Source: Patescibacteria group bacterium (GTDB lineage: Bacteria > Patescibacteriota > Patescibacteriia > JBDRGY01). From it: a stretch of 64,000 bases of DNA. Numbering within the stretch: position 1 is the stretch's first letter; each line of letters begins with the position of its first letter. Positions 20,704 to 62,085 of the stretch are shown here, piece after piece. Made by a program: the position numbers and the translations under genes. A model generated the notes under the pieces. The model saw nothing but the letters and a program-made list of their open reading frames with translations, was not told the DNA's origin and did no database searches. Location: positions 64,797-128,796 of the forward strand of contig JBDRGY010000004.1 of assembly GCA_043817315.1 (NCBI GenBank), given 5' to 3'.

Positions 20704-20717
20704 AGACTATTTTACCT

Positions 20718-26255: not shown

Positions 26256-26655
26256 AAAGAGATCAATTTTAATCGTGGAAGATGAACAGATTATTGCTGA
26301 CATGTATGTCAGGGTGTTTGAGATGAGGCCCTTCAAAGCTTTTGTGGCTAGAAATTATGAAGAAGGCTTGGCACTGTTTGAGAAGGTTTTTCCGTCGTTT
26401 GTCTTGTTGGATTTGTTATTACCACAGCAAGGTGCGATTGAAGCCGATTATGCAGGTGAACCAGTGGGACTTACTTTGCTTCGGAAGATCAGACAGCACC
26501 CCGAAGGGCAGGACACTACAGTTATTGTACTTACCAATTTGGCCCAAGATCTTCACAAAAAGCAGGCGATGAATCTGGGAGCAGATCTGTATTTGGTTAA
26601 AGCAGAAATTGAGCCTGTGCAGTTAGTAAAGAGAGTTGACTCTTTGGCCAGATAG
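26230..26655 (+). CDS. single-domain response regulator (receiver only)
   Basis: A receiver fold is present: ILIVEDEQ, the phospho-acceptor region FVLLDLLLP, and TVIVLTNL. There is no output domain. The start overlaps the histidine kinase stop by 26 nt. Confidence 0.65.
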   Translation: MDPKIKSSKKRSILIVEDEQIIADMYVRVFEMRPFKAFVARNYEEGLALFEKVFPSFVLLDLLLPQQGAIEADYAGEPVGLTLLRKIRQHPEGQDTTVIVLTNLAQDLHKKQAMNLGADLYLVKAEIEPVQLVKRVDSLAR

Positions 26656-26670
26656 TGCGATAATTAGTGC

Positions 26671-27657
26671 ATGACACGGGGGAAATTCTACGAATTTTTA
26701 AATAAACTTAGGAAGGATTTTTTGTTAATCGGCCCCAAAAAAGAAAGGGGCGATTTATTTTTTTCCAAGTTGAATACAGCAAAAGAATTTGCCTTAACCG
26801 ACGAATTTCCTTTTTATCCGCCCAAAAAGTATTTAGTACCTCAAGCTGAGGTGCTTTTTGAGTTCCAGGGACATAAGTTGAAAGAAGTGCTGCCGGTAGT
26901 TAAAAATCAGATCCTGCTGGGGATTAACCTGACTGATTTAAAGGCAGTGATGCTATACGACCAGGTATTTGAAAAAGACCCCTATTATCAAAAAAGGCAG
27001 CAGGAAACAGTTATTACCGGGCAAACAGTCTTACCGGTAGAAAAAGGAACAGCCAATATCTTTGGTGAAAAACTGGAGGAGGATGTCTTGGAACATCTAA
27101 AGTTTGATATCCTTTTCGGAAAGCATAAAGATAAAATTAAATTCTTCACCGGTTCAGAGCAAGGACAGAATATCCTGGATAAATACAAAGTAAAGGATTA
27201 CCAGCACGTAAATTTCCAGGGACCGATTCCGGAACAGGGAGTAGCCGCCAAGGCGATAGCTGATTATAAAAAAGTGAAAAATTCGGCTGCGGCCAATGTC
27301 TGGGAAGAGTTGGGTAAAAAATGTATTGCCTGCGGCAAGTGCACCACGGTCTGTCCTACTTGCTTTTGTTTCCAAATCCTTGATAAGCCTTGTACTCAAC
27401 CCAACACTGGATTACGCTGCCGGGAATGGGATTCCTGTTTTTACAATAATTTTTCCAGGATAGCAGATGATCAAAAATTCCTGAAGTCAGTCAATGAGAG
27501 AATCTATTTTTGGTACCAACATAAATTTGTACGTATTCCTGAAGACTATCAATTTACCGTGCCAGGTTGTATCGGTTGTGGTCGTTGTATTAAAGTCTGC
27601 CCAGTGGGCATTGATATAAAAAAAGTGTTAGACAGTCTGAAACGATATGAAAAATAA
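26671..27657 (+). CDS. hydrogenase/sulfhydrogenase beta-type Fe-S subunit (2x[4Fe-4S]; AsrA/HydB-like)
   Basis: It has two ferredoxin-type Cys clusters, CIACGKCTTVCPTCFC and CIGCGRCIKVCP. It is linked to the gamma, delta and alpha subunits downstream. Confidence 0.6.
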   Translation: MTRGKFYEFLNKLRKDFLLIGPKKERGDLFFSKLNTAKEFALTDEFPFYPPKKYLVPQAEVLFEFQGHKLKEVLPVVKNQILLGINLTDLKAVMLYDQVFEKDPYYQKRQQETVITGQTVLPVEKGTANIFGEKLEEDVLEHLKFDILFGKHKDKIKFFTGSEQGQNILDKYKVKDYQHVNFQGPIPEQGVAAKAIADYKKVKNSAAANVWEELGKKCIACGKCTTVCPTCFCFQILDKPCTQPNTGLRCREWDSCFYNNFSRIADDQKFLKSVNERIYFWYQHKFVRIPEDYQFTVPGCIGCGRCIKVCPVGIDIKKVLDSLKRYEK

Positions 27658-28474
27658 TTACCAAACTAAAGAAGCCAAAATAGTGGATATCAAACCAGAA
27701 GCACCTGGTCTTAACATGTACACTTTACAGTTAATATCGGCGGCCGAACGCAATTCATTCCGCTTTGACCACGGTCAGTTTATGGAATTCAGCTTGCCGG
27801 GTTATGGCGAATCACCGTTTGATGTTTGTTCTACCCAGGAAATTATTAAAAAGAAACTGATCCAAGTTTGCGTTCGTAAGGTAGGTAGAGTTACTGAAAG
27901 GATTCACCAGCTAAAAAAAGGCGATTTAGTGGGGATACGCGGACCATACGGTTACGGTTGGCCTACTATTTCCCAATTGAAAAAGAAAAATGTCTTGGTG
28001 ATTGGCGGTGGCATCGGTTTGATCCCCATGCGCTCAATTGTCGAAGAATTATGCGGACAGCCCGACTGGAAAAAGAAACTGACAGTTTTTTATGGGGCGC
28101 GTAACACCAAGGAATTTATTTTTAAGGACAGGTATAAGTATTGGAAACAGCACTCTGACTTAAGAATCACCATTGATTGCCAAGAAAAAGCCTGGGCCGG
28201 CTGTACCGGAGTAATCACAGTTTTGTTCGACCAATGCGAAGTTAATGAAGATACCTATGCCTTAGTTTGCGGACCGCCTATCATGTTTAAGTTCGTTTTA
28301 GCCAAATTGAAAAAGGCTCGCCTCCCCGAAAAAAACATTTTTCTTTCTCTGGAACGCCGCATGGATTGCGGAGTCGGTATTTGCCAGCACTGTGCTATTG
28401 GTCCCTATTATGTCTGTAAAGACGGACCGGTGTTTCGCTACGACAAAATTAAGAACATAGGAGGAGCTATTTAA
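27647..28474 (+). CDS. hydrogenase gamma-type FAD/NAD(P)-binding subunit with C-terminal [2Fe-2S] (PyrK/HydG-like)
   Basis: 275 aa. It has an FAD-binding beta barrel (RFDHGQFMEF), an NAD-binding motif (VLVIGGGIGLIPM), and a C-terminal CGVGICQHC...C cluster. Confidence 0.65.
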   Translation: MKNNYQTKEAKIVDIKPEAPGLNMYTLQLISAAERNSFRFDHGQFMEFSLPGYGESPFDVCSTQEIIKKKLIQVCVRKVGRVTERIHQLKKGDLVGIRGPYGYGWPTISQLKKKNVLVIGGGIGLIPMRSIVEELCGQPDWKKKLTVFYGARNTKEFIFKDRYKYWKQHSDLRITIDCQEKAWAGCTGVITVLFDQCEVNEDTYALVCGPPIMFKFVLAKLKKARLPEKNIFLSLERRMDCGVGICQHCAIGPYYVCKDGPVFRYDKIKNIGGAI

Positions 28475-28475
28475 A

Positions 28476-28676
28476 ATGTGTTTAGTCATACCCTCACAAG
28501 TAAAAAAAATAAATGAGAAACTAGCGGTTGTTGATCACCAGGGCCAGGAGAAAACGGTTCAGGCCGATTTGGTTAAAGTAAAAGTAGGGGATTGGGTATT
28601 TACCCAGGCCGGGTTTATCGTTAAAAAATTATCAAAATCAGAAGCATTAAAAACATTGGAGTATTATGAAAAATAA
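28476..28676 (+). CDS. hypC: hydrogenase maturation chaperone HypC/HupF family
   Basis: 66 aa. The MCLVIPSQV N-terminus is the hallmark MCL[AG]IP of HypC. Confidence 0.7.
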   Translation: MCLVIPSQVKKINEKLAVVDHQGQEKTVQADLVKVKVGDWVFTQAGFIVKKLSKSEALKTLEYYEK

Positions 28677-29562
28677 AGGTCTTATCTTAGTCTTAACCAC
28701 GGCGATCATCTCCGGCTTTTCTATTTACTTCAACAAGTTTGCCATCAAGATGAATTCACCGTATATTTTTGCCGGTTTGAAAAATCTAATAGTGGGCATA
28801 TTTTTTATCGCCTTGACCACAGGGGTCGGTCAATTAGTGGAATTCCGTAAATTGAAGAAGCAAGATTGGTTAAAGCTTGTACTGATCGGCTTGATCGGCG
28901 GTTCCATTCCCTTTCTGCTATTTTTTCAAGGCCTATCCATGACCACAGCTGCTTCAGCCTCATTTATTCACAAAACAATGTTTCTATGGGTGGGGTTGCT
29001 GGCCATTTGGTTTCTAAAAGAGAAATTAAACAAGAATCTGTGGATAGCCATCCTGTCCATCTTGGTCGGTAACGTCTTGCTGCTCAAGATGCAAAATATC
29101 AGTTTAAACTGGGGCGATGGTTTAATTTTGTTGGCCACTTTATTTTGGGCCGCGGAGATCACTTATTCTAAAAAAGTACTTACCAAGTTATCACCCAGAA
29201 TGGTCAGCTTTGGCCGCATGTTCTTCGGCAGTTTGTTTATTCTGGCCTTTTTGGCAGTCACTGGCCAACTAACTTTAATTGGCAGCTTAAGTACGGCTCA
29301 ATGGGGTTGGGTGATGTTTACCTCGGTGTTTTTAATCGGCTACGTGGGTACTTTTTATCACGGTTTGAAATGGGTCAAAGCTTCTACAGCTACTGCCATT
29401 TTAGCCTTGGGTGCGCCCATTACAGCAGTCTTACAGGCTATCTTCAGCCACCAAATATTGATAAACATGCAGTGGCTGGGCCTGGGTCTGATCGGTTTAG
29501 GTACAGCCTTTTTTATTGTTCAACAAATTAAGACAAACGGATGGAAGTTACCCAACAACTAA
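28666..29562 (+). CDS. EamA-family (DMT superfamily) transporter
   Basis: 298 aa with about 10 TM helices arranged as two EamA-like repeats. Confidence 0.65.
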   Translation: MKNKGLILVLTTAIISGFSIYFNKFAIKMNSPYIFAGLKNLIVGIFFIALTTGVGQLVEFRKLKKQDWLKLVLIGLIGGSIPFLLFFQGLSMTTAASASFIHKTMFLWVGLLAIWFLKEKLNKNLWIAILSILVGNVLLLKMQNISLNWGDGLILLATLFWAAEITYSKKVLTKLSPRMVSFGRMFFGSLFILAFLAVTGQLTLIGSLSTAQWGWVMFTSVFLIGYVGTFYHGLKWVKASTATAILALGAPITAVLQAIFSHQILINMQWLGLGLIGLGTAFFIVQQIKTNGWKLPNN

Positions 29563-30317
29563 TTAAAAATTTAGCCCGAGCGCGTCTATCCGCTTATCCG
29601 AATTTTGAAAAGATTGAACTGGATCCTGCGGCAATGGTTATTTTAACCCGTTTGTTTTTGAATCCCGACTGCATTTCCGACATTGATTTGGGGAAGCTAA
29701 CCACCCAAGCCACTGTTAAGTTGTGTGATTTAGCCAAGCATATTGTAACAGCCGCACCGGTGACCATTGCCCAATACTGCGAGCAACACAACAAGTTGCT
29801 GGTAACGGAAAAAGACATGATTCTCTGTTTCGGTTTGGATCATATTGATTCGGTTTTTAGGAACAAAGTGCATGAGTCGGACAATCCCCAAGTGGCTCTG
29901 GCCCACATCCTGACTGCCGGCAAAGTAAAATCAATTAAAAAAAATTTAGTAACCATGATTGTTCAGCTGGGTGAAGAAAAATCAGTCGAGCTGAAAAATG
30001 TCCTGATTCCCCGGGAGCTGACTATCAAAAAAGGCCAGACAGTTTGGCAGCATTACGGGGTGGTCATCGAAAAAGCGGAAGGCGATCTGGCGGAACAAGT
30101 CCGTTTTGGCCAGAAAGAAATCGGCTATTTCCAGAAAATACTGGGCCAAAACAACAAGAAAGTGATTGATTTCTCCGACCGTTCCATTTTCCAAAAAGAT
30201 CTTATTGGCGCTATTTTGTCCGAAGAAAGAGCCCTCAAGGCCAAAAAAAGTTTCAATGCCAAAAAGAAATTGGTTACCAATATTGATAAAGATATTAAGT
30301 TTGCCCAAGATGCCTAA
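29541..30317 (+). CDS. hypothetical protein
   Basis: 258 aa, soluble. It overlaps both neighbours. No motif was recognised. Confidence 0.4.
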   Translation: MEVTQQLIKNLARARLSAYPNFEKIELDPAAMVILTRLFLNPDCISDIDLGKLTTQATVKLCDLAKHIVTAAPVTIAQYCEQHNKLLVTEKDMILCFGLDHIDSVFRNKVHESDNPQVALAHILTAGKVKSIKKNLVTMIVQLGEEKSVELKNVLIPRELTIKKGQTVWQHYGVVIEKAEGDLAEQVRFGQKEIGYFQKILGQNNKKVIDFSDRSIFQKDLIGAILSEERALKAKKSFNAKKKLVTNIDKDIKFAQDA

Positions 30318-31098
30318 GAAGAAACCAGTTGTTGCCCTAGTCTCTCTATCCTGTTGCGAAGGATGTCTCTTTGCTATCTTCGATTTGCACGAGAGGTTTT
30401 TCAGTTTAGTCAAAGACTACGCCGAGATAGGGGAGTCGCAAATTACCCGCGAAACTTTCGGTAAAGGACCGTATGACATTGCTATCGTGGAAGGCACTCC
30501 CATTACCAAAGGCAACATCCAAGTTCTCAAAGAAGTCAGAAAACGTTCTAAAATATTAATTGCTTTGGGTGATTGTGCCACTCATGGTTGTGTTCAGTCT
30601 ATAAAAAACTACGTTGATAAAGAAAAAGCCATTAAGCACGTTTATAAAGACAGAAAGGGCATTGATAACCCGGATATCAAACCGATTAAAGACTTTGTTA
30701 AAGTAGATTATGAAATCCTGGGTTGCCCGGTTAACGCCGAAGAATTTATGGAAGCCTTCTTAGAATTAAGAGAAGGCCGGATGCCCAAGGCCCCAACCCC
30801 GCGTTCGGTTTGTTATGAATGCCAGGAAAGAGAAATTGAGTGTCTATTACAGCAAGGTGAAGCGTGTTTGGGTCCGGCTATCATTGGTGGCTGCGGTGCT
30901 ACTTGCCCCGAAGCCAAATATCGCTGCGAAGGCTGCCGCGGTGTGATCAAAGATAATCCAGGCTTACTAAATTTTGTTAAGCAACTGAAAAAAGTAGCTA
31001 CTCAAAAAGAGATAAATCATATATTAGAGAAGTTTGGGATTAGAAAAGAGTGGGAGGAAGAAATTAATAAAAGAAAGGAGAAAAAAAATGAAATATGA
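30310..31098 (+). CDS. [NiFe]-hydrogenase small (delta) subunit, group-3-like
   Basis: The NuoB-like N-terminus VALVSLSCCEGC is followed by distal Fe-S cysteines CYECQ...C....C and CGATCPEAKYRCEGC. The frame is open from 30166, but the ATG at 30310 gives the expected N-terminus. Confidence 0.7.
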   Translation: MPKKKPVVALVSLSCCEGCLFAIFDLHERFFSLVKDYAEIGESQITRETFGKGPYDIAIVEGTPITKGNIQVLKEVRKRSKILIALGDCATHGCVQSIKNYVDKEKAIKHVYKDRKGIDNPDIKPIKDFVKVDYEILGCPVNAEEFMEAFLELREGRMPKAPTPRSVCYECQEREIECLLQQGEACLGPAIIGGCGATCPEAKYRCEGCRGVIKDNPGLLNFVKQLKKVATQKEINHILEKFGIRKEWEEEINKRKEKKNEI

Positions 31099-31303
31099 CT
31101 GGAAAAATTGTTATAATTTATTTAAACCGATAAACACCCCGATATATTTGGGATTGGGTGTTATTTTTTTTCTGATCAGTCAAATACTGTTTATTCCTAT
31201 TTTTTTCTTCTTATCATTTTTTTTGGTATTTTTTGGATTTATTTCCCTTATATTAAATTTATTAGTTTTTCTATTTAGGGAGCGCAAGGTTAAAAAGAAG
31301 TAA
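31088..31303 (+). CDS. small hydrophobic protein, doubtful
   Basis: 71 aa, low complexity and Phe/Leu-rich. An AAAGGAG ribosome-binding site lies upstream. It may not be a real gene. Confidence 0.25.
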   Translation: MKYDWKNCYNLFKPINTPIYLGLGVIFFLISQILFIPIFFFLSFFLVFFGFISLILNLLVFLFRERKVKKK

Positions 31304-31318
31304 TTAATTTCTTATTTT

Positions 31319-32632
31319 ATGACCAACCAACCAAAAGGGAAAAGTCTGGTCGCTACGATCATAATTGTGGTTGCTTTGATTGCTATCGGCGTCGGTATTT
31401 ATCTCATTGACCAAAGCCGAACCAATGAAAACAGCAACAGCAACACTAACAACAACACTAACACTGCTGTAGTTACTAAGATTGACGATTCCCAAGCCAC
31501 TCCGGCCATGGTGGAAGAAGTAGTTGCAGGCATCAACGATTTTACTTTTGATCTTTATGCAAAACTTCAGGAGGAAGAGGGCAATCTTTTTTTCTCCCCC
31601 TACAGTATCTCTACCTGTTTAGCTATGACTTATGAAGGGGCTGAAGGCCAGACTGCCACTGAAATGCAAAAAGTCTTTAATTTCCCGACCGATGATACCA
31701 CCCGACAAGCCGGCTATGCTAGTATCTATAATGAAATAAACAAAGAAGACAAGGAATACACTCTAAGCACAGCCAACGCCCTCTGGGCTCAATTAGATTT
31801 CACTTTTCTAGATAAATATTTTGATCTGGTTGGAAAATACTATGGTGGCCGGGTTACCAATCTTGATTTTATTGACGACACCGAAAATTCCCGTGTCACT
31901 ATTAACGACTGGGTGGAAGATCAGACTAACGGTAAAATCACCGATCTGATTGCTCGCGGCGCAGTGGGTCCAGCCACCAGACTGGTTTTGACTAATGCTA
32001 TCTATTTTTACGGGGAATGGCTTAAGGAATTCCAGGAAGAAGATACCGAAGATGACGATTTTAGATTGACTCCAGAAAATACGATTCAGATTCCCATGAT
32101 GAAGAAAACCGGTACCAGTTTTAACTACGCTGAAAATGACCAATTGGAGCTACTAGAATTACCTTACAAAGGCGAAGAGCTGTCTATGATTTTCCTTCTT
32201 CCTCAAAATGATGACCTGTCCGGACTGCAGGAAACCTTAAGCGATGAACAGTTAATCGCTTGGAAAGATGACTTATTCAAGCAAAAAGTAAATATTTATA
32301 TACCCAAGTTTAAATTTGAAAAAAGTATTTCTCTAACTAATACATTGAAAGAAATGGGTATGCCCACCGCTTTCAATCGGGTCTTTGCCGATTTTTCCCA
32401 GATGAGTGAAGAAGAGCCATTGATGATAACAGACGTTGTTCATAAGGCCTTTGTAGAGGTCAATGAGAAGGGAACGGAAGCAGCGGCAGCAACCGGGACT
32501 ACGATAGGTATAGCAACCTCTGTTGAGCCACCTACTCCAGTTTTCCGGGCTGATCATCCTTTCCTCTTCCTGATTCAGCAGACTGACACTGGCAACATTC
32601 TGTTCCTGGGCCGGGTGTCAGATCCTCGTTAA
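31319..32632 (+). CDS. serpin-family serine protease inhibitor, membrane-anchored
   Basis: 437 aa. It has a TM helix, an Asn-rich linker (NENSNSNTNNNTNT), and a serpin body with the hinge and reactive-centre loop EKGTEAAAATGTTIGIATSV and the C-terminal FRADHPFLFLI. Confidence 0.85.
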   Translation: MTNQPKGKSLVATIIIVVALIAIGVGIYLIDQSRTNENSNSNTNNNTNTAVVTKIDDSQATPAMVEEVVAGINDFTFDLYAKLQEEEGNLFFSPYSISTCLAMTYEGAEGQTATEMQKVFNFPTDDTTRQAGYASIYNEINKEDKEYTLSTANALWAQLDFTFLDKYFDLVGKYYGGRVTNLDFIDDTENSRVTINDWVEDQTNGKITDLIARGAVGPATRLVLTNAIYFYGEWLKEFQEEDTEDDDFRLTPENTIQIPMMKKTGTSFNYAENDQLELLELPYKGEELSMIFLLPQNDDLSGLQETLSDEQLIAWKDDLFKQKVNIYIPKFKFEKSISLTNTLKEMGMPTAFNRVFADFSQMSEEEPLMITDVVHKAFVEVNEKGTEAAAATGTTIGIATSVEPPTPVFRADHPFLFLIQQTDTGNILFLGRVSDPR

Positions 32633-32647
32633 TTATTTCATAAAAAT

Positions 32648-34390
32648 ATGACTAGTAAACTCAAAAAAAACAGCAAGGTAATAATTATTGTCACTGTGGT
32701 TATTGTTGTTTTGGTCGGAGGGGCAATTTATTTGTTAAGTCGAAAAACGGAAACTGCTGAAGAAATTGTTAATTCCGTAGCCATTGTCAACGAAACTATA
32801 AATACTAATGATAATCTTAACAATCAATCTGTAAATCTGAACACCAACCAAGCGTTGAATCAAAATACCAATCAAGCGGTAAGTGCTTCCAGTCAATATC
32901 CGGCCAATGATTGGGCGGTCTATAATGATGTAAATTATGATTATTCATTGATGTATCCGGCAGACTGGACGGATGAAAGAGCAGCCGTTGCTTCGGCAGT
33001 AGAGATTAATTCAAATGTTCTTAATACAAATTCTGATGTGTATTTTGAGCAATATTTTATGGATCAAGGTGAAAAATATGGAGAATTTATTATTGTCGAG
33101 GGATCAAATTGGACCCCATCCCTAAAAGGCAATTGGAGTTCCCAAGAATCAGAAATGGAAGTGGGGGGAATAGCAGCAACCAAAACAATTTACACCCCTA
33201 CCGACTTAGAAGAATGGGATACTAATCCTGGCACCAAGACCAAAATAGTTTTTACTGAACCGTTGCCGATCGATAAGACTATTGAAATCGGCCTGGAGAA
33301 TAAAAATAACAGCCAGATTACAGCCGATGTGCTAGCCGGCATATTATCCTCTTTTCAGTTTGATTATCGATTCCCAGCCGTTAGTTCCTTTTGGATCAGG
33401 ACTCTCGGGGATGTTGAAACAGGTTCAAGTTTAGGCACCTTTGATTTAACTACTGGTGAAATTATAGAGTCAAGAGTCTATCCAACTCAAACTATGTTTT
33501 CTTTCAATATTATTCCCAATCCTGAAGCGGGCAAAGTTGCATACTACCAATACAACAGTGAAGAAGAGTCGTACGATATTATTTTGTCAGATACCAAAGG
33601 ATTGGAAGATAAAATTATTGCTAATGGAGTTGTCTGTGTAGATGGTCCTTGTGATTTTGAGAATGCAGTGGCTCTAGGAGAATTATCTAAGGATGGAAAC
33701 TACTTTTCTTATTTTGATCACAATGAAGTTAAAGTGCAGAATTTGATAACCGATGAGGTTACTGTATTGCCTGATTCTTATTCAACAAGCACCAGTTTTT
33801 CACCTATGGGTAATTATATTTTTTCTAGATGGCAAAGAGAATATGACTCTGCTATTCAATACAGCAAAATTTCAGATATAAGTACGACCAAAATTGAAGG
33901 AACAGAATGGAATACAGCTTTTTCTTTTAATGAAAAATATTTAGCTTCGTCTAAGCAACAATATGATTCAGAAACAGAGGGTCATTCTGTAGATATTTAT
34001 CTTTACAACGTACTCACGGGTGATCTGGTTGATCAAATGACCATAGCTGATTATTCACAAACAGGAACAACTAATCTGGCCTGGTTGACCAATGACCGGT
34101 TCGTAGTACTTGCCGAAAAGGATAATTCGACTAAAGAAGCTTTTTTGATAGAAATTATTAATAATAAAATGGTAAGAAGAAGTTTGTCTACTAGTACGGG
34201 AGAGAAGGTAAAGGGGGAGAGAATTTTCCGTATAGACTCAGATAGCGTGTTGCTAGACTACATGGTCGATAATAAATATTCCATATATTCTTACGATATA
34301 AACGGTGATAAGGAAATAATATTTGAAGACGTTACTGATGGTGAAAAATGGTATTCTTATAAATACTATCTTCTGGGTCCAAACGATTAA
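32648..34390 (+). CDS. membrane-anchored extracellular protein, hypothetical
   Basis: 580 aa. It has a TM helix, an Asn/Gln-rich linker, and a large beta-rich domain. Confidence 0.5.
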   Translation: MTSKLKKNSKVIIIVTVVIVVLVGGAIYLLSRKTETAEEIVNSVAIVNETINTNDNLNNQSVNLNTNQALNQNTNQAVSASSQYPANDWAVYNDVNYDYSLMYPADWTDERAAVASAVEINSNVLNTNSDVYFEQYFMDQGEKYGEFIIVEGSNWTPSLKGNWSSQESEMEVGGIAATKTIYTPTDLEEWDTNPGTKTKIVFTEPLPIDKTIEIGLENKNNSQITADVLAGILSSFQFDYRFPAVSSFWIRTLGDVETGSSLGTFDLTTGEIIESRVYPTQTMFSFNIIPNPEAGKVAYYQYNSEEESYDIILSDTKGLEDKIIANGVVCVDGPCDFENAVALGELSKDGNYFSYFDHNEVKVQNLITDEVTVLPDSYSTSTSFSPMGNYIFSRWQREYDSAIQYSKISDISTTKIEGTEWNTAFSFNEKYLASSKQQYDSETEGHSVDIYLYNVLTGDLVDQMTIADYSQTGTTNLAWLTNDRFVVLAEKDNSTKEAFLIEIINNKMVRRSLSTSTGEKVKGERIFRIDSDSVLLDYMVDNKYSIYSYDINGDKEIIFEDVTDGEKWYSYKYYLLGPND

Positions 34391-34408
34391 GAATTTATAA
34401 AAAATATT

Positions 34409-35506
34409 ATGAATGAACAACAACCAGCCAGCAAAAACAACAAATCAATAATTATCATTGTCATTGTGGTAGTGGTGCTGGCTTTGGGATTCGGGGTGTA
34501 CTTTTATTTTTTCCGGGCAGATGAAACTAACGAGAATGCTAATACCAACACCAATACAGTAGCCAACCAAAATCAAAATATAAATCAGAATGTTAACGCC
34601 AGCTTGCCAGCTTTTACCAAAACTTGTGATTACGACACGGACTGTGAATTAAGACTAGGCTGTACAGAAGCTGATTGTTATAACGTAGCTGCAGCAGAAG
34701 TTCTTTATGATTGTGACAAGACGTTAAACCCCATAGTAACTGACAATCTGTCATGCGTTTGTGCTGAAAAAGAATGTACGGTTTCAGAAGAAGAGGAGAC
34801 AACCAATACCAATCAAAACGCCAACACTAATCAGTCAGTCAATGCTAATACCAATCAAGATGTGGAAGCCACTGGCTCGACAACAACACCAATAGATTCT
34901 ACCTGGAATCTATACACCAATAATGATCTGGGGTTTTCTATCAATATTCCGGTTGAAGCTTATTTCTATTACGCTTCCTGTGACTGGCGAGATGATTCTT
35001 ACCGGCCAGGGAGTGGTATGGTACCGGTCAGTACTTTTGCCACAGATGACTCAGTATATATCAATCAAGAATATTTATATGAACTAGGCGGAGCAACCGA
35101 GGTTGGTGGTATAACTAATTATTCTGAATGCAACCGGGTGGAAAATTCGGTTTCCCGTTTATCGTCAGAAATTCGCACCTGGAACATTAAAGTAGCCACA
35201 GTGGAAGATGAAGTTGTCTTGGAAGATTTTATCAATGATACTTTCGGCGAAGGTGGTTGTAGTCTAGGCGATCAAACTGCCTGGGAGCATCAAGATGGAG
35301 TTTATGAGGTTCGGATTGAAACTGATGGTTTAGACCCAGAAGAATCGCGTTGTTTTATTAATTACGCGGTAAATATTTTCTACTATCCGGCCGGCAATAA
35401 AGTAATGACTTGGGATTTAGGACAGGATATTTCTTTCCCAGCTGACAGTGCTGTCTCTGCCTTCTACGATACTGATATGACGAATAGTTTTCGATTTTTG
35501 GAATAA
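34409..35506 (+). CDS. membrane-anchored Cys-rich extracellular protein (paralog A)
   Basis: It has a TM helix, an NTNTN linker, and the module KTCDYDTDCELRLGCTEADCY...YDCDKTL...LSCVCAEKECTVSEEEE. Confidence 0.5.
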   Translation: MNEQQPASKNNKSIIIIVIVVVVLALGFGVYFYFFRADETNENANTNTNTVANQNQNINQNVNASLPAFTKTCDYDTDCELRLGCTEADCYNVAAAEVLYDCDKTLNPIVTDNLSCVCAEKECTVSEEEETTNTNQNANTNQSVNANTNQDVEATGSTTTPIDSTWNLYTNNDLGFSINIPVEAYFYYASCDWRDDSYRPGSGMVPVSTFATDDSVYINQEYLYELGGATEVGGITNYSECNRVENSVSRLSSEIRTWNIKVATVEDEVVLEDFINDTFGEGGCSLGDQTAWEHQDGVYEVRIETDGLDPEESRCFINYAVNIFYYPAGNKVMTWDLGQDISFPADSAVSAFYDTDMTNSFRFLE

Positions 35507-35522
35507 TTAACCAAAAATATAT

Positions 35523-36341
35523 ATGAGTATGACCACCAAAGGATTCAACGCAGTTATCGGGGTGATTGTGGTCTTGGTTCTGGGTATCGGTGTAGCGGTT
35601 AGTTACTACGTCTATTACCAGAGTACTGAGGTTGAAGTAAATACCGTCGACACCAATACAACGGTAAATCAGAATACCAATACCAGTTTGCCAGCCGGAA
35701 CCAAAACTTGTAAGCACAACTTTGACTGTGAAGTAAAATATGATTGTGAACAATATGATTGTTATCATAAAGATGCACCACCCGAGTTTAAATGTGATCC
35801 TACCCTAGTGGATGTTCCCAGCTCATCAAATTATTACTGCGTTTGTGCCGAGAAGGAGTGTGCTTTAGTAGAAGAAGATGATGTCACAGCTGATTGGCAG
35901 ACGTATGCTAGCGAGGATTATGGCTATTCAATCAAATACCCAAACGATTGGCTAACGAACATGGAATACATCAATCAGAGCAATCTGTATTTATTAACTC
36001 AAGAAAGAAAACAAGACCTAGATGACGGAAGAATTGTTAGAGTTTTTGACGTAATGGTTAAAGTATATGGAACTGCTGTCGAACTTCCCCATAATTCTGA
36101 TGATCAATTGAATTTTGAAAATTGGATTGATCAGAAGGCTGATACCTGGGGTTTTATTAACCGAGAATCCGTACTGATTGATGGTATAACTGGTTATCAA
36201 GGAATTGGTTCTGGTGATGGAACTAGCTATATTAGTTATATTGAAAAGGATGGCTATATTTATGAAATTCAAACAGGTGATACTGATGTTCCAACAGAAA
36301 CAGAACAGTTAGTTATTGACTCTTTCCAATTCACTGACTAA
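35523..36341 (+). CDS. membrane-anchored Cys-rich extracellular protein (paralog B)
   Basis: It has the same module as paralog A: KTCKHNFDCEVKYDCEQYDCY...FKCDPTL...YYCVCAEKECALVEEDD. Confidence 0.5.
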   Translation: MSMTTKGFNAVIGVIVVLVLGIGVAVSYYVYYQSTEVEVNTVDTNTTVNQNTNTSLPAGTKTCKHNFDCEVKYDCEQYDCYHKDAPPEFKCDPTLVDVPSSSNYYCVCAEKECALVEEDDVTADWQTYASEDYGYSIKYPNDWLTNMEYINQSNLYLLTQERKQDLDDGRIVRVFDVMVKVYGTAVELPHNSDDQLNFENWIDQKADTWGFINRESVLIDGITGYQGIGSGDGTSYISYIEKDGYIYEIQTGDTDVPTETEQLVIDSFQFTD

Positions 36342-36349
36342 AAAAACCA

Positions 36350-37606
36350 ATGAAAATAAAAATTGACCACATCTGTAAAATAGAAGGACACGCTGATTTT
36401 ATCGCTGACATTGAACGTGGTGATGTTAAAACAGCGCGGTTTCGGACCCTGGAAGGCGCCCGCCTGATTGAGGGTATTCTGATTGGCCGCAAATACATCG
36501 AACCGACCATAATTACCCCCAGAATCTGCGGTATTTGCCCGGTAGTGCACAATTTAACCTCGACTAAGGCGATTGAGGCTTGTTTCGATATCGAGCCCAC
36601 AGAACAGGTTATTTTACTGCGAAAAATCTTAGAATTGGCCCAGTTTATCCATTCTCACGGCATTCATCTATTCTTCCTGACCTTGCCTGATTTCTTCAAG
36701 ATAAAAACAGAATTAAAGATGTTAGAAAAATTTCCTAAAGAAGCCCAGATGGCTATCCGGGTTCGTAATTTCGGAGTGGATCTGGTCAAAGTAATCGGCG
36801 GTCGGACCGTTCATCCAATTACCACAGAAATCGGCGGCATTAAGCGCCTGCCCGACCGCAAGGCCCTACACGAGATATTAAGCCGTTATGATTCAGTAAT
36901 GGAAGATGCCTTAGCTTTGGCTAAAGTGTTTGCCGGATTAGAATATCCAGAACTGTTCCGCAAACAGGACTACATGTCTTTACACAATTCTTCGGAATAC
37001 GCCATCTACGACGGCGATGTGATGTCATTGCACGGAACCAAAATTCCGGCCAGTAAATTCATGCACAGTATTGAAGAAGTGAAGCGACCTTATGAATTAA
37101 TCAAGCACGCCAAGTATCGTGGCGATTCCTATTTTGTAGGTGCCATTGCCCGAATAAATAACAACCAAAGTCAACTGAACCCAGTAGCTACAAAAGTGTT
37201 GCGCAGTAGCGGCCTCAAATTCCCTTCATATAACAATTTTCACAACATCATGTGCCAGGCCATTGAGTTAGTACACTGTCTCGAGGAATCTAAAAAGTTA
37301 CTAAACCAGTATTTTAAACAACGCAGTCAGAAGCTAAACGTACCGGTTAAGGTCAAAGCCGGCAGGGGAGTGGGAGCGGTTGAAGCACCGCGCGGTACTT
37401 TGTATCATTATTACGAAACGGACAAGAACGGTTTCATCACCGATTGTAATATTATTACCCCGACTGCCCAGCAAGTTCCCAACCTGGAACAGGATCTAAA
37501 AACCTGGATTCCCAATGTGATGCAGTTGGACGAGAAGACTAGAGTCCAGGAAATCCGCAAGTTGATTCGGGCTTATGACCCCTGCATGACTTGTGCTACT
37601 CATTAA
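36350..37606 (+). CDS. [NiFe]-hydrogenase large (alpha) subunit, group-3-like
   Basis: 418 aa. It has the L1 motif RICGICPVVH and the C-terminal L2 motif DPCMTCATH. Confidence 0.85.
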   Translation: MKIKIDHICKIEGHADFIADIERGDVKTARFRTLEGARLIEGILIGRKYIEPTIITPRICGICPVVHNLTSTKAIEACFDIEPTEQVILLRKILELAQFIHSHGIHLFFLTLPDFFKIKTELKMLEKFPKEAQMAIRVRNFGVDLVKVIGGRTVHPITTEIGGIKRLPDRKALHEILSRYDSVMEDALALAKVFAGLEYPELFRKQDYMSLHNSSEYAIYDGDVMSLHGTKIPASKFMHSIEEVKRPYELIKHAKYRGDSYFVGAIARINNNQSQLNPVATKVLRSSGLKFPSYNNFHNIMCQAIELVHCLEESKKLLNQYFKQRSQKLNVPVKVKAGRGVGAVEAPRGTLYHYYETDKNGFITDCNIITPTAQQVPNLEQDLKTWIPNVMQLDEKTRVQEIRKLIRAYDPCMTCATH

Positions 37607-37616
37607 TAATCATACC

Positions 37617-37695
37617 ATTGCGATCCCGCGCCAGCGGGAGAAGCAATCCCGTTACTACACCGGGATCGCCACGCCCCTATGGGGCTCGCGATGGT
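37617..37695 (+). promoter_or_regulatory. GC-rich structured intergenic element with nested inverted repeats
   Basis: gcgatcccg pairs with cgggatcgc. There are inner stems cccgc/gcggg and gcccc-tat-ggggc. The element lies between hydA and the hypA-like gene in an otherwise AT-rich context. Confidence 0.3.
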
Positions 37696-37709
37696 AGGAA
37701 GAAAACAAT

Positions 37710-37964
37710 ATGCACGATTTAATGGCAGCTCAAGAGTTACTAAAAACAGCATTAGAAGTAGCTCGCGACAAAAAATTAAAGAAGATTACCAAGATTATTG
37801 TTGAGCTTGGCACTGTTATCGATCACGACGAAGAAATTACCGAGGAGAACATCAGTTTTAATCTAAAGAACCTCAGCGTCGGAACAGAGGCTGAGGGGGC
37901 TTCTGTTATTGTCCACAAAGTTGCCGGTAATCATTACATTCTCAAAGAGATCGAGGGTGACTAA
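37710..37964 (+). CDS. HypA-like protein lacking the zinc-finger
   Basis: 84 aa. The N-terminus MHDLMAAQELLKTALEVARDKKLKKITKIIVELGTV resembles HypA (MHE.S.A..I........A......V..V.L.IG). There is no CxxC...CxxC motif. Confidence 0.4.
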   Translation: MHDLMAAQELLKTALEVARDKKLKKITKIIVELGTVIDHDEEITEENISFNLKNLSVGTEAEGASVIVHKVAGNHYILKEIEGD

Positions 37965-37979: not shown

Positions 37980-38834
37980 ATGGCCTTTATACTAGTCGGA
38001 TTTTTTATCTTGGTATCGGGGGTCATTTATATAGCTATCTACCACTTCCTTCATCCACGGCGTCAGCCCAAACAAGCCATTCCGGAGGACTATGGGGTTA
38101 AGTATGAGGATGTCACTTTCCAGGCTGAAGACGCTTTTGAGTTGCGGGGTTGGTTTATTCCGGCAGCAAATCCTACAGATAAAGTGATTATTATTTGTCA
38201 CGGTTATCGTGGTAATAAGACACATACTTTGGAATGGGGGCTTTTTTTAAGGGATAAATATAATTTATTTTACTTTGATTTTCGGACTCACGGTAAAAGC
38301 CAGGGGAAAGTAACCACCTTTGGTTACCACGAAAGGAAGGATGTTGAGGCGGCTATTTGCTACCTGAGAACCCGGTCCGGTATTGATCATAACCAAATCG
38401 GAGTGATGGGGCTTTCTATGGGAGCCAGGACTGCACTATTGAGCTCCATAAAGAATCAGGAAATCAAAGCCATAGTAGCTGATAGTACCCCTCTAGACTT
38501 TGAAGGAATAATCAAAGTTTTTCGCAACTACTATTTTATAAAGTGGCCCCTGATAAAACTGGCCCGTTTTTATTCTAATAAATTTCTACACTTCAGCCTT
38601 GATGAAATGTCCCTGAAGAGAAAAGCTAAAAAGATCAAAATTCCGGTCTTGATGATTCATGCCAAGAATGATCCGGTGGTTCATGCTTACAATTCCCAAA
38701 TGGTTTATCAGAATTTAGGCGGGCCCAAAGAACTTTGGATGACTGATTGTTTTGAACACGGCCGTTCCTATTTTTCGTTTAAGCGAGATTACCAGGAAAA
38801 AGTGCTGCAGTTTTTCGGTCGATACATCAGATAG
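37980..38834 (+). CDS. alpha/beta-hydrolase fold protein with N-terminal TM helix
   Basis: It has the nucleophile elbow GLSMGA and the motifs HGYRGN and MIHAKNDPVV. Confidence 0.6.
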   Translation: MAFILVGFFILVSGVIYIAIYHFLHPRRQPKQAIPEDYGVKYEDVTFQAEDAFELRGWFIPAANPTDKVIIICHGYRGNKTHTLEWGLFLRDKYNLFYFDFRTHGKSQGKVTTFGYHERKDVEAAICYLRTRSGIDHNQIGVMGLSMGARTALLSSIKNQEIKAIVADSTPLDFEGIIKVFRNYYFIKWPLIKLARFYSNKFLHFSLDEMSLKRKAKKIKIPVLMIHAKNDPVVHAYNSQMVYQNLGGPKELWMTDCFEHGRSYFSFKRDYQEKVLQFFGRYIR

Positions 38835-38908
38835 CCTTTTTGGCCCTATTTCGCAGGATATGGGGCCTTTTTAATTCGCCCAAAAAGTGTTATAATAAAA
38901 AGGAATTT

Positions 38909-40084
38909 ATGAAGCTGAAATCATATATATCAGCGCAGCTCGGCGGGAAAACAGTTATCCTGCGGGTAGCTTATGAAACACCGGTAAAAATGGCAGGGAA
39001 TAGTTTTATGGTGGAAGATGATAACAGACTAAAAGCCTCGTTGCCCACCATTAATTACTTAGTAAAGAAAGAATGCAAGATAGTTCTGGTTTCTTACAAC
39101 GGTAGACCCAAGGGCGAAGAAGAGAAATTGAAAATGGATCCCCAGGCCAAGCGATTGAGTGTGATGTTGGGCAGGAAAATTGATAAATTAGATGATTGTG
39201 TCGGTCCTAAAGTGGAAGAATTTGTGGCTAAGATGCAACCGAAAGAGATTGTTCTTTTAGAAAATACCAGGTTTCATCCGGAAGAAAAGAAAAATAATTC
39301 TGCCTTTGCCAAGAAGCTGGCCAAATTGGGGCAGGTTTTTATTAATGACGCTTTTGCCCAGAGCTATGAACCACACGCTTCAACGACTGCCATTACCAAA
39401 TTCTTGCCGTCTTATGCCGGACCACTATTAATCCAAGAAGTTGAGAATCTTTCTAAAGTGGTACAAAATCCCAAACGGCCCTTTGTGGCCATTATCGGGG
39501 GAGCTAAAATATCCAACAAGATAAAAGTAATTAATAAATTATTAGAGAAGGCGGATTATGTTTTATTGGGTGGCGCCCTGGCCAATACTATTTTGATCGC
39601 CCAAGGCATTCAAGTGGGAACATCTTTGATTGAAGAAGAATATGTAACTATCGCTAAGAAGCTGCCCATTACCAGTTTAAAGCTAAAAATCCCGGTAGAC
39701 GTTCTGGTTGCTTCAACCGCCTTAAGCTCCCAAAGTCTTCCCCGTCCGGTGGGGTCGGTCAAGCCCCAAGAAAAAATCTTGGATATCGGACCGGACACCA
39801 TCGATCTTTACGAAAGAATTATTGCCACAGCCAAGACCATAGTATGGAATGGACCGATGGGGATGTACGAGAAATCCCAGTTCTCCTATGGAACTACCAA
39901 GATTGCCCAGGCAGTAGCCAAGGCCCGGGCCAAAAGCTACGTTGGAGGAGGGGAGACAGTTGATTTTATCAGGGACAATAAATTGGAAAAGCAGATAGAT
40001 TTTATTTCCACCGGCGGCGGCGCCATGTTGCAGTTTATTAAAGACGGAACCTTGCCAGCTTTAAAACCATTAACCATAAAATAA
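38909..40084 (+). CDS. pgk: phosphoglycerate kinase
   Basis: The N-terminus reads LGGKTVILRVAYETP. The C-terminus reads ISTGGGAMLQFIKDG. The frame is open from 38840. Confidence 0.85.
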   Translation: MKLKSYISAQLGGKTVILRVAYETPVKMAGNSFMVEDDNRLKASLPTINYLVKKECKIVLVSYNGRPKGEEEKLKMDPQAKRLSVMLGRKIDKLDDCVGPKVEEFVAKMQPKEIVLLENTRFHPEEKKNNSAFAKKLAKLGQVFINDAFAQSYEPHASTTAITKFLPSYAGPLLIQEVENLSKVVQNPKRPFVAIIGGAKISNKIKVINKLLEKADYVLLGGALANTILIAQGIQVGTSLIEEEYVTIAKKLPITSLKLKIPVDVLVASTALSSQSLPRPVGSVKPQEKILDIGPDTIDLYERIIATAKTIVWNGPMGMYEKSQFSYGTTKIAQAVAKARAKSYVGGGETVDFIRDNKLEKQIDFISTGGGAMLQFIKDGTLPALKPLTIK

Positions 40085-41352
40085 TGAGCAAAATTGCTAA
40101 AATCCACTCTTTGGAAATTTTAGATAGCCGGGGCTATCCCACTATCAAAGCCAAAGTCTATTTGGAAAACGGCGTTTGGGGCGGTGCCTCGGTACCGGCC
40201 GGTGCTTCCAAGGGAAAAAGTGAATCGACTGAACTTCGAGACGGTGACACAAGACGTTATCAGGGTAAGGGGGTGAAAAAGGCCATTTCTATAATAAATA
40301 CCCGCATTCAGCGCTTATTAAAGGGCGTGGACATCAATCTGATGCGGGAGATTGATAATAAAATGATCGAAAGTGACGGCACCAAGACCAAATCGGATAT
40401 GGGGGCCAACACCATCTTGGCCGTTTCTCTGGCCTGTGCCCGGGCCGGTGCTCTGCAAAATCAGAAACCGCTGCACCAGCACATCCGGGAAGTCTATGGC
40501 CTTGGTTTCAAAGACTATCAGTTACCCCTGCCCATGATTAATATTATTAACGGGGGCAAACACGCTGACAGCCGGACTAATATCCAGGAATATATGATAA
40601 TACCCAAGGCTGATAAATATTCGGAAATCATCCGCTACGGGGCTGAGGTTTTTCATCAGCTCAAAGAGATTCTAAGAGCCAAAGGGTTGTCAACCGGAGT
40701 GGGAGACGAAGGAGGATACGCTCCCCATTTTGAAAGCAATGAAATGCCTTTTCAGTTAATCCTGGAAGCGGTTTCTCAAGCCAACATGACAGCCGGAGAA
40801 CAGATTACTCTTGGCATCGATGCCGCGGCCGATAATTTTTATAACCAAGAGCAGAAAAAATATTTTCTGGAATTAGAAAATTCTTCACTGACTTCAGAGC
40901 AGCTGGCCGCCCTCTATTCGGAATGGGCCAACAAGTATCCGATTATTTCTGTGGAAGACGGTTTAGCTGAAGAAGACTTGGATGGCTGGGCCCTGCTCAA
41001 TAGTAAGCTGGGCAATAATATTTTGGTGGTAGGAGATGATCTCTTTGTTACTGATCAAGAAAGATTGAAAATAGGAGTAGCCAAGTCATTAGCCAACGCC
41101 ATCATTATCAAGCCCAATCAAGTGGGCACCCTGACGGAGACAATCGATTGTGTCCAGTTGGCTCAAGCCAACAAGTTTAAAGTAATTGTCTCAAACCGGT
41201 CTGGAGAGACCTGTGACAACTTTATTGCCGATCTGGCCATTGCGGTCAAAGCTGATTTTATCAAAACCGGTTCAATGTGCAGAGGGGAAAGAATAAGTAA
41301 ATATAATCGACTATTGGAAATCGAGGAGGAACTAACTCAAAATGAAGGCTAA
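40084..41352 (+). CDS. eno: enolase
   Basis: 422 aa. It has ILDSRGYPT, SVPAGASKGKSESTELRDGD, and the enolase metal- and substrate-binding layout. Confidence 0.9.
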   Translation: MSKIAKIHSLEILDSRGYPTIKAKVYLENGVWGGASVPAGASKGKSESTELRDGDTRRYQGKGVKKAISIINTRIQRLLKGVDINLMREIDNKMIESDGTKTKSDMGANTILAVSLACARAGALQNQKPLHQHIREVYGLGFKDYQLPLPMINIINGGKHADSRTNIQEYMIIPKADKYSEIIRYGAEVFHQLKEILRAKGLSTGVGDEGGYAPHFESNEMPFQLILEAVSQANMTAGEQITLGIDAAADNFYNQEQKKYFLELENSSLTSEQLAALYSEWANKYPIISVEDGLAEEDLDGWALLNSKLGNNILVVGDDLFVTDQERLKIGVAKSLANAIIIKPNQVGTLTETIDCVQLAQANKFKVIVSNRSGETCDNFIADLAIAVKADFIKTGSMCRGERISKYNRLLEIEEELTQNEG

Positions 41353-44485: not shown

Positions 44486-44499
44486 TTAATATTAGATAT

Positions 44500-45528: not shown

Positions 45529-45529
45529 T

Positions 45530-62071: not shown

Positions 62072-62085
62072 TAATTTGAGATTTT

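Follow-up and report, generated by a model that had tools for sequence, protein, structure and literature searches.

A 64-kb stretch of DNA from a Patescibacteria group bacterium (contig JBDRGY010000004.1; hereafter 'the window') encodes a predicted four-subunit [NiFe] hydrogenase in which the genes for the small (delta) and the large, catalytic (alpha) subunit are separated by a cassette of four surface-protein genes headed by a serpin. We find that this arrangement is an old, position-stable, content-variable and lineage-specific variant of the known, loosely organized hydrogenase cluster of Patescibacteria, or Candidate Phyla Radiation (CPR). The explanation that we consider likely is that the locus encodes a functional group 3b hydrogenase of the Patescibacteria 'hyd1' type within a fermentation array, that its genes form two conserved blocks joined at a permissive delta–alpha junction (the junction of the small- and large-subunit genes), that an array of surface-protein genes was acquired at this junction long ago, and that a single mRNA carries both the cassette and alpha. 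We see no sign of a new mechanism, and the split is apparently harmless.

A group 3b-type hydrogenase with separated subunit genes

An earlier note on this DNA had described a group-3b-like [NiFe] hydrogenase with four subunits, a serpin and three membrane-anchored proteins. A map of open reading frames (ORFs) and Pfam and NCBIfam profile scans of the window ORFs, from which all family calls are taken, confirmed its gene order and coordinates throughout and bore out the hydrogenase (Table 1).

Table 1. Features of the hydrogenase locus and its surroundings in the window.
Feature	Position	Strand	Family match or other properties
Histidine kinase, 7TM-GAF-HisKA-HATPase	23448-26255	+	Pfam domains
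Single-domain response regulator, directly upstream of beta	26158-26655	+	Pfam Response_reg 5.5e-15
Beta subunit, AsrA-like 4Fe-4S	26671-27657	+	Fer4_22 1.2e-27; ShyB/HydB/AsrA-like
Gamma subunit, FAD/NAD(P)-binding with 2Fe-2S site	27647-28474	+	NAD_binding_1 and DHODB_Fe-S_bind; ShyC-like
HypC chaperone, 66 aa	28476-28676	+	HupF_HypC 5.2e-20, 71.8 bits (cut-off 28.5)
EamA/DMT-family transporter	28666-29562	+	EamA 3.6e-40
hyp258	29541-30317	+	No Pfam or NCBIfam match
Delta (small) subunit, 262 aa	30310-31098	+	Oxidored_q6 1.4e-22; ShyD 2.2e-46
AT-rich spacer, left edge of cassette	31099-31318	+	220 nt, 24% GC, 49% T
Serpin, membrane-anchored, predicted inhibitory type; first cassette gene	31319-32632	+	Pfam Serpin 5.5e-122, 408 bits, whole model
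mp580	32648-34390	+	Transmembrane (TM) anchor, Asn/Thr-rich linker, PsbP-like start motif, large C-terminal domain; no family match
mp365, paralogue of mp272	34409-35506	+	TM anchor, linker, 8-Cys domain, second linker, C-terminal domain
mp272, last cassette gene	35523-36341	+	TM anchor, linker, 8-Cys domain, PsbP/Mog1p-like domain
Alpha (large, catalytic) subunit, 418 aa	36350-37606	+	NiFeSe_Hases 1.3e-34; ShyA 3.2e-77; ShyA/HydA-like
Three-hairpin GC-rich element between alpha and hypA-like gene	37607-37709	+	56% GC
HypA-like, N-terminal (Ni-binding) domain only, 84 aa	37710-37964	+	HypA 1.4e-6, 28.7 bits (cut-off 28.9)
Alpha/beta hydrolase, pgk, eno	37980-41352	+	Pfam
iPGM paralogues, tandem	41342-42904, 42905-44485		

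Alpha matches NiFeSe_Hases at 120.5 bits, against a cut-off of 25.8. For the other subunits the best NCBIfam matches are ShyB, ShyC and ShyD, with the anaerobic sulfite reductase families AsrA and AsrB ranking next; beta matches ShyB at 4.7e-35 and HydB at 7.8e-33, both far under the equivalog cut-offs, and gamma matches PRK08345 at 5.5e-66 and ShyC at 2.1e-60. All four subunits score far below the equivalog cut-offs of the Pyrococcus furiosus enzymes (alpha 260.2 of 700 bits, beta 121.2 of 690, gamma 204.3 of 600 and delta 158.4 of 460), which marks them as a distant clade of the same type, not orthologues. The closest alpha homologues are all from Patescibacteria, and beta is 38–45% identical to the beta genes of CPR loci. 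From these best family hits, and following Jaffe et al. 2020 for the CPR clade, we assign the predicted enzyme to the four-subunit, group 3b-type, NAD(P)-linked [NiFe] hydrogenases.

Beta and gamma overlap by 11 nt and lie 2.7–3.6 kb upstream of delta on the same strand. Together with the length of delta, whose likely start is the ATG at 30310 (an 8-nt overlap with the stop of hyp258), this co-location fits the CPR 'hyd1' subclade. Gamma is separated from delta by 1.8 kb, and the delta stop from the alpha start by 5,251 nt; the window lacks the contiguous beta-gamma-delta-alpha order that is typical, if not strictly defining, for group 3b.

Alpha retains 70 of the 70 columns that are invariant in an alignment of 26 CPR homologues. 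Among these columns are the N-terminal ligand motif RICGICPVVH (residues 58–67; R58-I-C-G-x-C-P..H67) and the C-terminal ligand motif DPCMTCATH (residues 410–418; D410-P-C..C..H418). The protein ends exactly at the histidine of the latter and has no C-terminal extension.

The same ending recurs in all 23 alpha subunits that are at least 43% identical to that of the window, each of which stops exactly at the histidine of DPCxxCxxH, while about 56 of 73 non-CPR group 3b relatives carry an extension of 4–27 aa. Given the lack of an extension, the CPR clade seems to do without maturation by an endopeptidase. One further homologue (L105:2-790) ends in DPCITCATQ, with glutamine in place of the terminal histidine of the ligand motif; its gene is followed by EamA and then by a member of the hyp258 family (P0252, 39% identical to hyp258), an order that differs from that of the window.

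The split is shared by close relatives

We used tblastn with window proteins as queries to compare 11 genome loci and 80 metagenome loci with related alpha genes, referred to here by L numbers. The split was common to all four close relatives found (L015/L016, L019, L020/L021 and L104), and every contig with a member of the 90% cluster of the window alpha shows it. At least three other assemblies with an alpha about 90% identical to that of the window contain the cassette. The order is EamA-hyp266-delta-HD-Ldh_2-serpin-mp580-like in L015/L016 (delta 90% identical), serpin-120-aa Cys-rich protein-alpha-hypA-hydrolase-pgk-eno in L019, Cys-rich protein-257-aa protein-alpha in L020/L021, and serpin-279 aa-221 aa-alpha in L104, a contig found through its homologue of mp272. 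The position of the cassette is conserved across these relatives and its content is variable. No traces of HD or Ldh_2, the two genes that L015 has here, were found in the 220-nt spacer or in the rest of the window.

In the closest relative outside this genus-level group, L014 (alpha 56% identical), 138 bp lie between delta and alpha, and there is no cassette. Its alpha gene is followed, as in the window, by hypA, an alpha/beta hydrolase gene, pgk, eno and iPGM, so that relative to this state the serpin block is an insertion. The cassette is also absent from all loci more distant than L014 (alpha ≤56% identical). An old and stable arrangement had been one outcome envisaged by the earlier note: the split is indeed present in all four close relatives, at the level of a genus, but the content of the cassette is unstable.

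The alpha subunits of the window, L019 and L020 are about 90% identical in each pairwise comparison, and synonymous sites are saturated (dS, synonymous divergence, 1.9–2.7). The ratio of nonsynonymous to synonymous divergence (dN/dS) is 0.03 for alpha, measured against relatives at 90% identity, and 0.023 for delta, measured against L015. The serpin (61–71% identity) and the Cys-rich cassette proteins (47–53% identity, dN/dS 0.18; other cassette values are saturated) evolve much faster than alpha and delta. Saturated dS combined with dN/dS near 0.03 points to a split that is ancient on the scale of these lineages and to an enzyme that is still maintained under purifying selection.

These values bear on whether the insertion disrupted the operon and left a decaying or non-functional hydrogenase. 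The non-canonical separation of the subunit genes would fit such decay, as would a truncated, cysteine-free hypA and the fact that no hypB, hypD, hypE or hypF is visible in the 64-kb window. Against it, alpha and delta have dN/dS of 0.02–0.03 at saturated dS, every ORF is intact, and the invariant residues and Ni-Fe ligand motifs are all present; moreover, the short hypA and the extension-less alpha characterize the CPR clade as a whole, loci in which delta and alpha are adjacent among them. We therefore regard decay as very improbable.

A chimera produced by assembly or binning seems to us less credible still. In its favor, the sequence comes from a metagenome-assembled genome, and the GC content of the cassette is slightly lower (0.39 vs 0.42), with third-position GC of 0.31–0.36 in the three anchored-protein genes (0.355 in mp365) against 0.40–0.52 in the hydrogenase and glycolytic genes. 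However, both junctions recur in independently assembled sequences from other samples: L015/L016 show the left one, running from delta to the serpin and mp580, and L019, L020/L021 and L104 show the right one, running from the serpin or a Cys-rich gene to alpha. This recurrence rules out an assembly artefact.

The genes between gamma and delta belong to the cluster

The earlier note had counted two interruptions of the operon. The serpin block is a real insertion with respect to L014, but the hypC/EamA/hypothetical stretch follows the conserved layout of the clade. In the typical Patescibacteria locus (alpha 43–56% identical) the order is beta-gamma-(hypC)-EamA-X-delta-alpha-hypA-pgk-eno, where X is DUF6390, while in non-CPR relatives (alpha 32–41% identical) beta, gamma, delta and alpha are contiguous. 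The segment gamma-(hypC)-EamA-DUF6390-delta is found in L001, L004, L005, L006, L022, L024, L031, L032 and L057, whose EamA orthologues between gamma/hypC and delta are 40–49% identical to that of the window; the orthologue in L015 is 80% identical. Because this layout is conserved in the clade, the first 'interruption' is best read as an ancestral part of the cluster, with no insertion.

HypC/HupF proteins are oligonucleotide/oligosaccharide-binding (OB) fold proteins of ~70–90 aa with an essential cysteine at position 2. The window hypC exceeds the cut-offs of both Pfam and TIGR00074 (56.1 bits against 48 for the latter), begins ATGTGT (Met-Cys) and thus has Cys2, and is preceded by GGAGG. 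Its position is the same in L001, L002, L024, L031 and L032.

hyp258 combines a helical N-terminal domain, a HypC-like OB barrel (residues ~125–178) and C-terminal helices. The family is rare, with about 20 representatives among 1.84 billion proteins, and 2 of 19 members match HupF_HypC (3.6e-5). An AlphaFold2 (AF2) model (pLDDT 85, pTM 0.83) has a central OB barrel, for which Foldseek returned the HypC structures 2z1c_B, 3vyu_A and 3vyt_A with target TM scores of 0.63–0.76, at E-values of only 0.03–0.05 and with other OB folds scoring alike. hyp258 holds the position that DUF6390 (PF19927) occupies in other CPR clusters, where DUF6390 relatives score 40–170 bits, and has a similar HypC-like motif. 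We rejected it as a diverged DUF6390: the PF19927 profile matched neither hyp258 nor its 18 homologues, and hhalign gave probabilities of 0.8% and then 25.5%, over a 20-residue motif only. These results do not support placing hyp258 in that family; both hypC and hyp258 are hydrogenase-associated and not foreign genes.

HypA nickel metallochaperones have ~113 aa, with an MHE Ni-binding motif and a Zn-binding domain that contains two CxxC pairs. The hypA-like gene downstream of alpha encodes the N-terminal domain only, as in all CPR relatives, and scores 25–29 bits against NCBIfam cut-offs of 88–146. Its product starts with MHD and contains no cysteine, hence no Zn site. This short form stands directly after alpha in most CPR loci.

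The cassette encodes a serpin and three anchored proteins

The earlier note had called three of the cassette proteins membrane-anchored, and all four are predicted to be so: each has one N-terminal hydrophobic helix within residues 1–38, called from Kyte-Doolittle hydrophobicity maxima (2.75–3.19), and in each an Asn/Thr/Gln-rich linker follows the helix. Inhibitory serpins share the hinge consensus E-x-G-T-E-A-A-A-A-T, rich in small residues. The hinge of the window serpin, EKGTEAAAATG, aligns with those of solved inhibitory serpins in an end-to-end alignment, and the best PDB match is 8gxv_A (1.7e-86). With a full fold and this hinge, the protein is predicted to be of the inhibitory type. 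Its nearest homologues are from Patescibacteria and DPANN archaea, and L015, L019 and L104 have orthologues with 61–71% identity at the corresponding position. The papers retrieved by a literature search on serpins of Patescibacteria all concerned unrelated host-microbiome topics.

The remaining three proteins are related in part. mp580 and mp272 share the motif DW..Y....Y.YS..YP.DW, and the first 125 aa of mp580 are 83% identical to the product of the gene after the serpin in L015. mp365, which has 12 cysteines, aligns with mp272 over the Cys-rich domain (BLASTP 6e-16); this 8-Cys domain is without a family match in either protein. The C-terminal domain of mp272 matches PsbP_2 in Pfam (6e-7), and its AF2 model (pLDDT 80–93) is closest in Foldseek to the PsbP structures 2xb3 (4.2e-6) and 1v2b (5e-6), which supports a predicted PsbP/Mog1p fold. 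Immediately 5' of alpha, L019 (120 aa), L020 (257 aa) and L104 each have an orthologue or paralogue of mp272.

Homologues of cassette genes are also found in unrelated contexts – a 57% identical serpin beside a glycosyltransferase gene (L017), and a tandem pair of mp272 homologues on a 1.08-Mb Patescibacteria contig (L102). Since they stand alone elsewhere, we rejected the serpin and PsbP-like genes as a fixed module; these contexts suggest a variable surface-protein array instead. The cassette also lacks the marks of a mobile element or genomic island. None of the window ORFs encodes an integrase, transposase or recombinase, and a repeat search around the cassette returned no flanking repeats, only low-complexity linker repeats and the paralogous Cys-rich domain.

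We considered whether the cassette is functionally tied to the hydrogenase/fermentation operon, its surface protease inhibitor and adhesion proteins sharing control with H2 and fermentative metabolism, as might suit life on a host cell; such a tie would account for the retained linkage. Consistent with it, at least four diverged lineages with saturated dS have kept the serpin and Cys-rich/PsbP-like genes between the two subunit genes, always with tight spacing to alpha. However, the content of the cassette varies – from one to three or more anchored proteins, with HD/Ldh_2 present or absent – homologous serpins and PsbP-like proteins lie in unrelated contexts in L017 and L102, and other CPR lineages carry entirely different cargo at the delta–alpha junction. 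In addition, where genes are packed on a single coding strand with near-zero intergenic DNA, no selection need be invoked to explain why the position has been kept. We consider a functional tie quite unlikely.

Transcription across the delta–alpha junction

The earlier note had stressed that the locus lies on one strand and is tightly spaced. This is true, but the whole window is built in the same way (essentially all genes on the + strand; median gap 15 nt over 53 junctions), and the packing is therefore uninformative about the hydrogenase. Promoter and terminator prediction, which the same note had proposed for deciding between co-transcription and separate units, yielded no flanking terminators above background and one plausible promoter at the left edge of the cassette.

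That promoter lies in the spacer between delta and the serpin, the sixth-largest of the gene junctions. An extended −10 box, TGTTATAAT, is located at 31109–31117, 11 nt past the delta stop. The word TGNTATAAT is found eight times in the window against 3.6 expected, a weak excess because 5 of 100 shuffles reach eight, and AT-rich spacers favor TATAAT-like words through their composition. Seven copies are on the + strand, three of them intergenic and just upstream of genes (3045, 19111 and 31109). We consider one extended −10 promoter just after delta plausible. Generic scans of the window were not above background for promoters (41 vs 32±5) or terminators (15 vs 13±4), and they reported no + strand terminator at either edge of the cassette. 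A weak hairpin followed by U8 (~31133–31171) was rejected as a terminator after delta, as its stability (z −0.38) is indistinguishable from that of shuffled sequence.

The spacer also contains a putative ORF of 71 aa (31088–31303) for a very hydrophobic protein with two TM helices; the ATG, which has AGGAG 8 nt in front of it, overlaps the stop of delta. It has no homologues in any fetched locus and could equally be an artefact of the T-rich spacer.

At the right edge, alpha starts 8 nt past the stop of mp272, and across four lineages (the window, L019, L020 and L104) this distance to the preceding surface-protein gene is 7–14 nt. A search for a conserved promoter upstream of alpha in these four found no shared block beyond the ATG itself, except for the gene end common to the window and L020. 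Given this spacing and the lack of a convincing terminator, alpha is probably co-transcribed with the cassette and with the downstream hypA-pgk-eno genes.

Alternatively, the locus may comprise two separately regulated units: unit A, from ~19309 to 31098 (including histidine kinase, response regulator, beta, gamma, hypC, EamA, hyp258 and delta), ending after delta, and unit B, beginning at the 31109 promoter (serpin, three anchored proteins, alpha, hypA and glycolytic genes). The 220-nt spacer is among only seven gaps of at least 200 nt in the 53 junctions, and the spacers at 31099–31318 and 19095–19308 are both 24% GC with TGnTATAAT 11–17 nt past the preceding stop. The hairpin and U8 (31133–31171) would provide an end for unit A, and in L057 a reverse-strand gene between delta and alpha means that alpha must have its own promoter there. 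On the other hand, the hairpin is no stabler than shuffles, was unreported by the terminator scan and lies downstream of the putative −10 box, which would place it in the leader of unit B and not at the end of A. In L015, moreover, there is no spacer: its counterpart is the HD and Ldh_2 genes, with delta, HD and Ldh_2 overlapping by 4 nt and the serpin following after 4 nt, so the boundary is not conserved in the lineage. We regard two separate units as possible, if somewhat doubtful.

The delta–alpha junction across Patescibacteria

An insert of at least 370 bp (size range 0.4–3.1 kb) separates delta from alpha in 9 of the 19 other CPR loci in which both genes are seen, a count that includes the related pairs L001/L002 and L007/L008; since some insert-bearing loci are related, independent events are fewer than nine. 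The inserts hold a GNAT gene in L001 and L002, a 173-aa hypothetical protein in L007, membrane proteins in L008 and L011, and short or reverse-strand ORFs in L022, L024 and L028. That of L057 (3.1 kb) contains two hexulose-phosphate-synthase-like genes, a reverse-strand SPFH gene and a 118-aa ORF, and the insert of the window is the largest seen. In all of the ~54 non-CPR group 3b loci, delta and alpha are at most 210 bp apart and there is no insert. The contiguous set that the earlier note had called canonical thus holds for the non-CPR loci, but contiguity of small and large subunit genes is not universal, as the Synechocystis hox operon (see below) illustrates.

It is conceivable that this junction is a recurrent docking site at which lineage-specific cargo – here a serpin-led host-interaction array – is captured and expressed from the hydrogenase/fermentation operon, as a regulatory arrangement and not by neutral shuffling. 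We think this unlikely; were it true, surface remodelling would be transcriptionally slaved to fermentative H2 metabolism.

The junction of alpha and hypA also accepts small inserts. In L004 (10148–10582) and L022 (4973–5415) a small ORF lies within perfect ~30-nt inverted repeats and looks like a small mobile or palindrome-flanked insert; to judge by its sequence, the product may be a four-helix-bundle (IVS-like) protein. This junction holds a pilin-like ORF in L005 and apparent methyltransferase genes in L023 and L024. In the window it is occupied by the three-hairpin element, in which the hairpins sit inside a closing stem (minimum free energy −48.4 kcal/mol, z −6.1; none of 200 shuffles is as stable). 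The element matches no Rfam family and has no second copy in the window. Unrelated strong hairpins were seen between alpha and hypA in L012 and L019, and between delta and alpha in L014.

A model for the split locus and its implications

In the explanation that we favor, one conserved block would be beta-gamma-hypC-EamA-(HypC-like accessory protein)-delta and the other alpha-hypA(N-domain)-pgk-eno, with foreign genes tolerated at the delta–alpha junction between them. A genus-level lineage would long ago have acquired a surface array there, consisting of an anchored inhibitory serpin and PsbP-like/Cys-rich anchored proteins, whose members have since been gained, lost and duplicated while delta and alpha stayed under strong purifying selection. 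The cassette and alpha would be read on one mRNA, whose transcription probably begins or is reinforced at the extended −10 promoter at 31109–31117; given the lack of a convincing terminator after delta, read-through out of the upstream block may contribute as well, and in L015 would act alone. Alpha would assemble post-translationally with separately translated delta, beta and gamma, so that adjacency of their genes would not be required. The cassette proteins, judged by their domains only, may have extracellular roles in inhibiting proteases and in interactions at the surface, with no mechanistic part in the hydrogenase.

Besides the absent hypB, hypD, hypE and hypF, the relatedness of some insert-bearing loci and the limits of the −10 word count described above, several points weigh against this explanation. 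The function of the hydrogenase is read from sequence conservation alone, and co-transcription from motifs and spacing alone. The loci compared were selected by similarity of alpha and not by phylogeny, and the full left junction was seen in one relative only (L015/L016). The hairpin and U8 after delta could still terminate some transcripts. Finally, Shine-Dalgarno motifs are rare in this genome and therefore give no guide to translational coupling.

The locus indicates that the genes for the small and large [NiFe] subunits can be separated over the long term by 5 kb of unrelated, fast-evolving genes with both subunits remaining strongly constrained. Because such a split can be long-lived under purifying selection, gene adjacency is an unsuitable criterion for calling or dismissing hydrogenases in metagenome bins. 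Our analyses also refine the picture of the Patescibacteria group 3b cluster to two conserved blocks and a permissive junction, and they flag EamA and the DUF6390/HypC-like protein as conserved, unstudied partners of the hydrogenase. Annotation pipelines and the inference of metabolism from CPR genomes stand to gain from these results, which we see as useful but incremental and of modest specialist interest. Of more interest than the split may be the by-products of the analysis: the lost C-terminal extension, the HypA N-domain without cysteines, the module of EamA and DUF6390, and the fusion of HypC to HydE that accompanies HydG in two related loci.

Genomic context of the locus

Histidine kinase or response regulator genes, both of which precede beta in the window, also adjoin it in the non-CPR group 3b loci L048, L058, L068 and L098, which suggests two-component control of these hydrogenases. 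Downstream, the order alpha-hypA-(hydrolase)-pgk-eno is found in L001, L002, L004, L014, L019, L022, L023 and L024. The fermentation array of the window extends from 38840 to 47551 and comprises pgk, eno, the two tandem iPGM paralogues, a PfkB kinase, a phosphotransacylase (PTAC) and acetate kinase.

Two group 3b [NiFe] clusters, L002 (5309–7967) and L097 (3625–6381), contain a pair of [FeFe]-type maturase genes that is absent from the window. The first encodes a HypC N-terminal domain fused to HydE (TIGR03956, 280.7 bits against a cut-off of 254.6), and the second a full HydG (TIGR03955, 612.7 bits against 312). The pair is located between gamma and delta in the CPR genome L002 and just downstream of alpha in L097, whose alpha subunit is 35% identical to that of the window. 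This hints that radical-SAM synthesis of CO/CN ligands has been recruited to [NiFe] maturation; a literature search for HydE/HydG in [NiFe] clusters found no description.

A bacterial RNase P class A RNA is encoded at 61594–62072 (184 bits against a gathering score of 100) and accounts for part of the large ORF-free stretch after 59839.

Comparison with known systems

The sulfhydrogenases I and II of P. furiosus (hydBGDA and shyBCDA) are the biochemically defined group 3b enzymes. The window enzyme has the same four subunit types, its best NCBIfam matches are ShyA/B/C/D and HydA/B/D/G, and NAD(P)(H)-linked evolution or uptake of H2 is presumed for it as well. It differs in the non-contiguity of its genes, in an alpha subunit without C-terminal extension and in scores below the equivalog cut-offs.

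The cassette serpin resembles known prokaryotic inhibitory serpins in its canonical hinge and, at the sequence level, its full fold, and among extracellular proteins with the PsbP/Mog1p fold, the C-terminal domain of mp272 matches the structures of PsbP. Unlike the known serpins and PsbP proteins, those of the window are predicted to be tethered by an N-terminal TM helix and low-complexity linkers, and mp272 and mp365 add the 8-Cys domain.

Among CPR hydrogenases, the parts of Jaffe et al. 2020 (BMC Biol 18:69, PMC7304191) that we consulted describe a 'hyd1' clade with a hypC-like neighbor and variable genomic context, in which beta and gamma do not always directly precede the small subunit, the small subunit is generally associated with the large one, and its length is ~250 aa, against ~164 aa in hyd2. 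The window locus fits this clade in its full-length small subunit, co-located beta and gamma, nearby hypC-like family and best alpha matches in Patescibacteria. The same parts of that paper describe no inserts between small and large subunit genes, no EamA/DUF6390 module and no serpin array, whereas delta and alpha of the window are 5.25 kb apart.

A precedent for the split itself is the Synechocystis hox operon, in which two unrelated ORFs lie between hoxY and hoxH on one polycistronic mRNA (PMC4264147). It belongs to another hydrogenase subgroup and phylum, its insert consists of two small ORFs and not of a 5-kb array of secreted/anchored proteins, and its co-transcription has been demonstrated, where that of the window is inferred. 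Like the window locus, it is an operon for a soluble NAD(P)-linked [NiFe] hydrogenase that is interrupted at two places by ORFs of unknown function, one of them between the genes for the small and large subunits.

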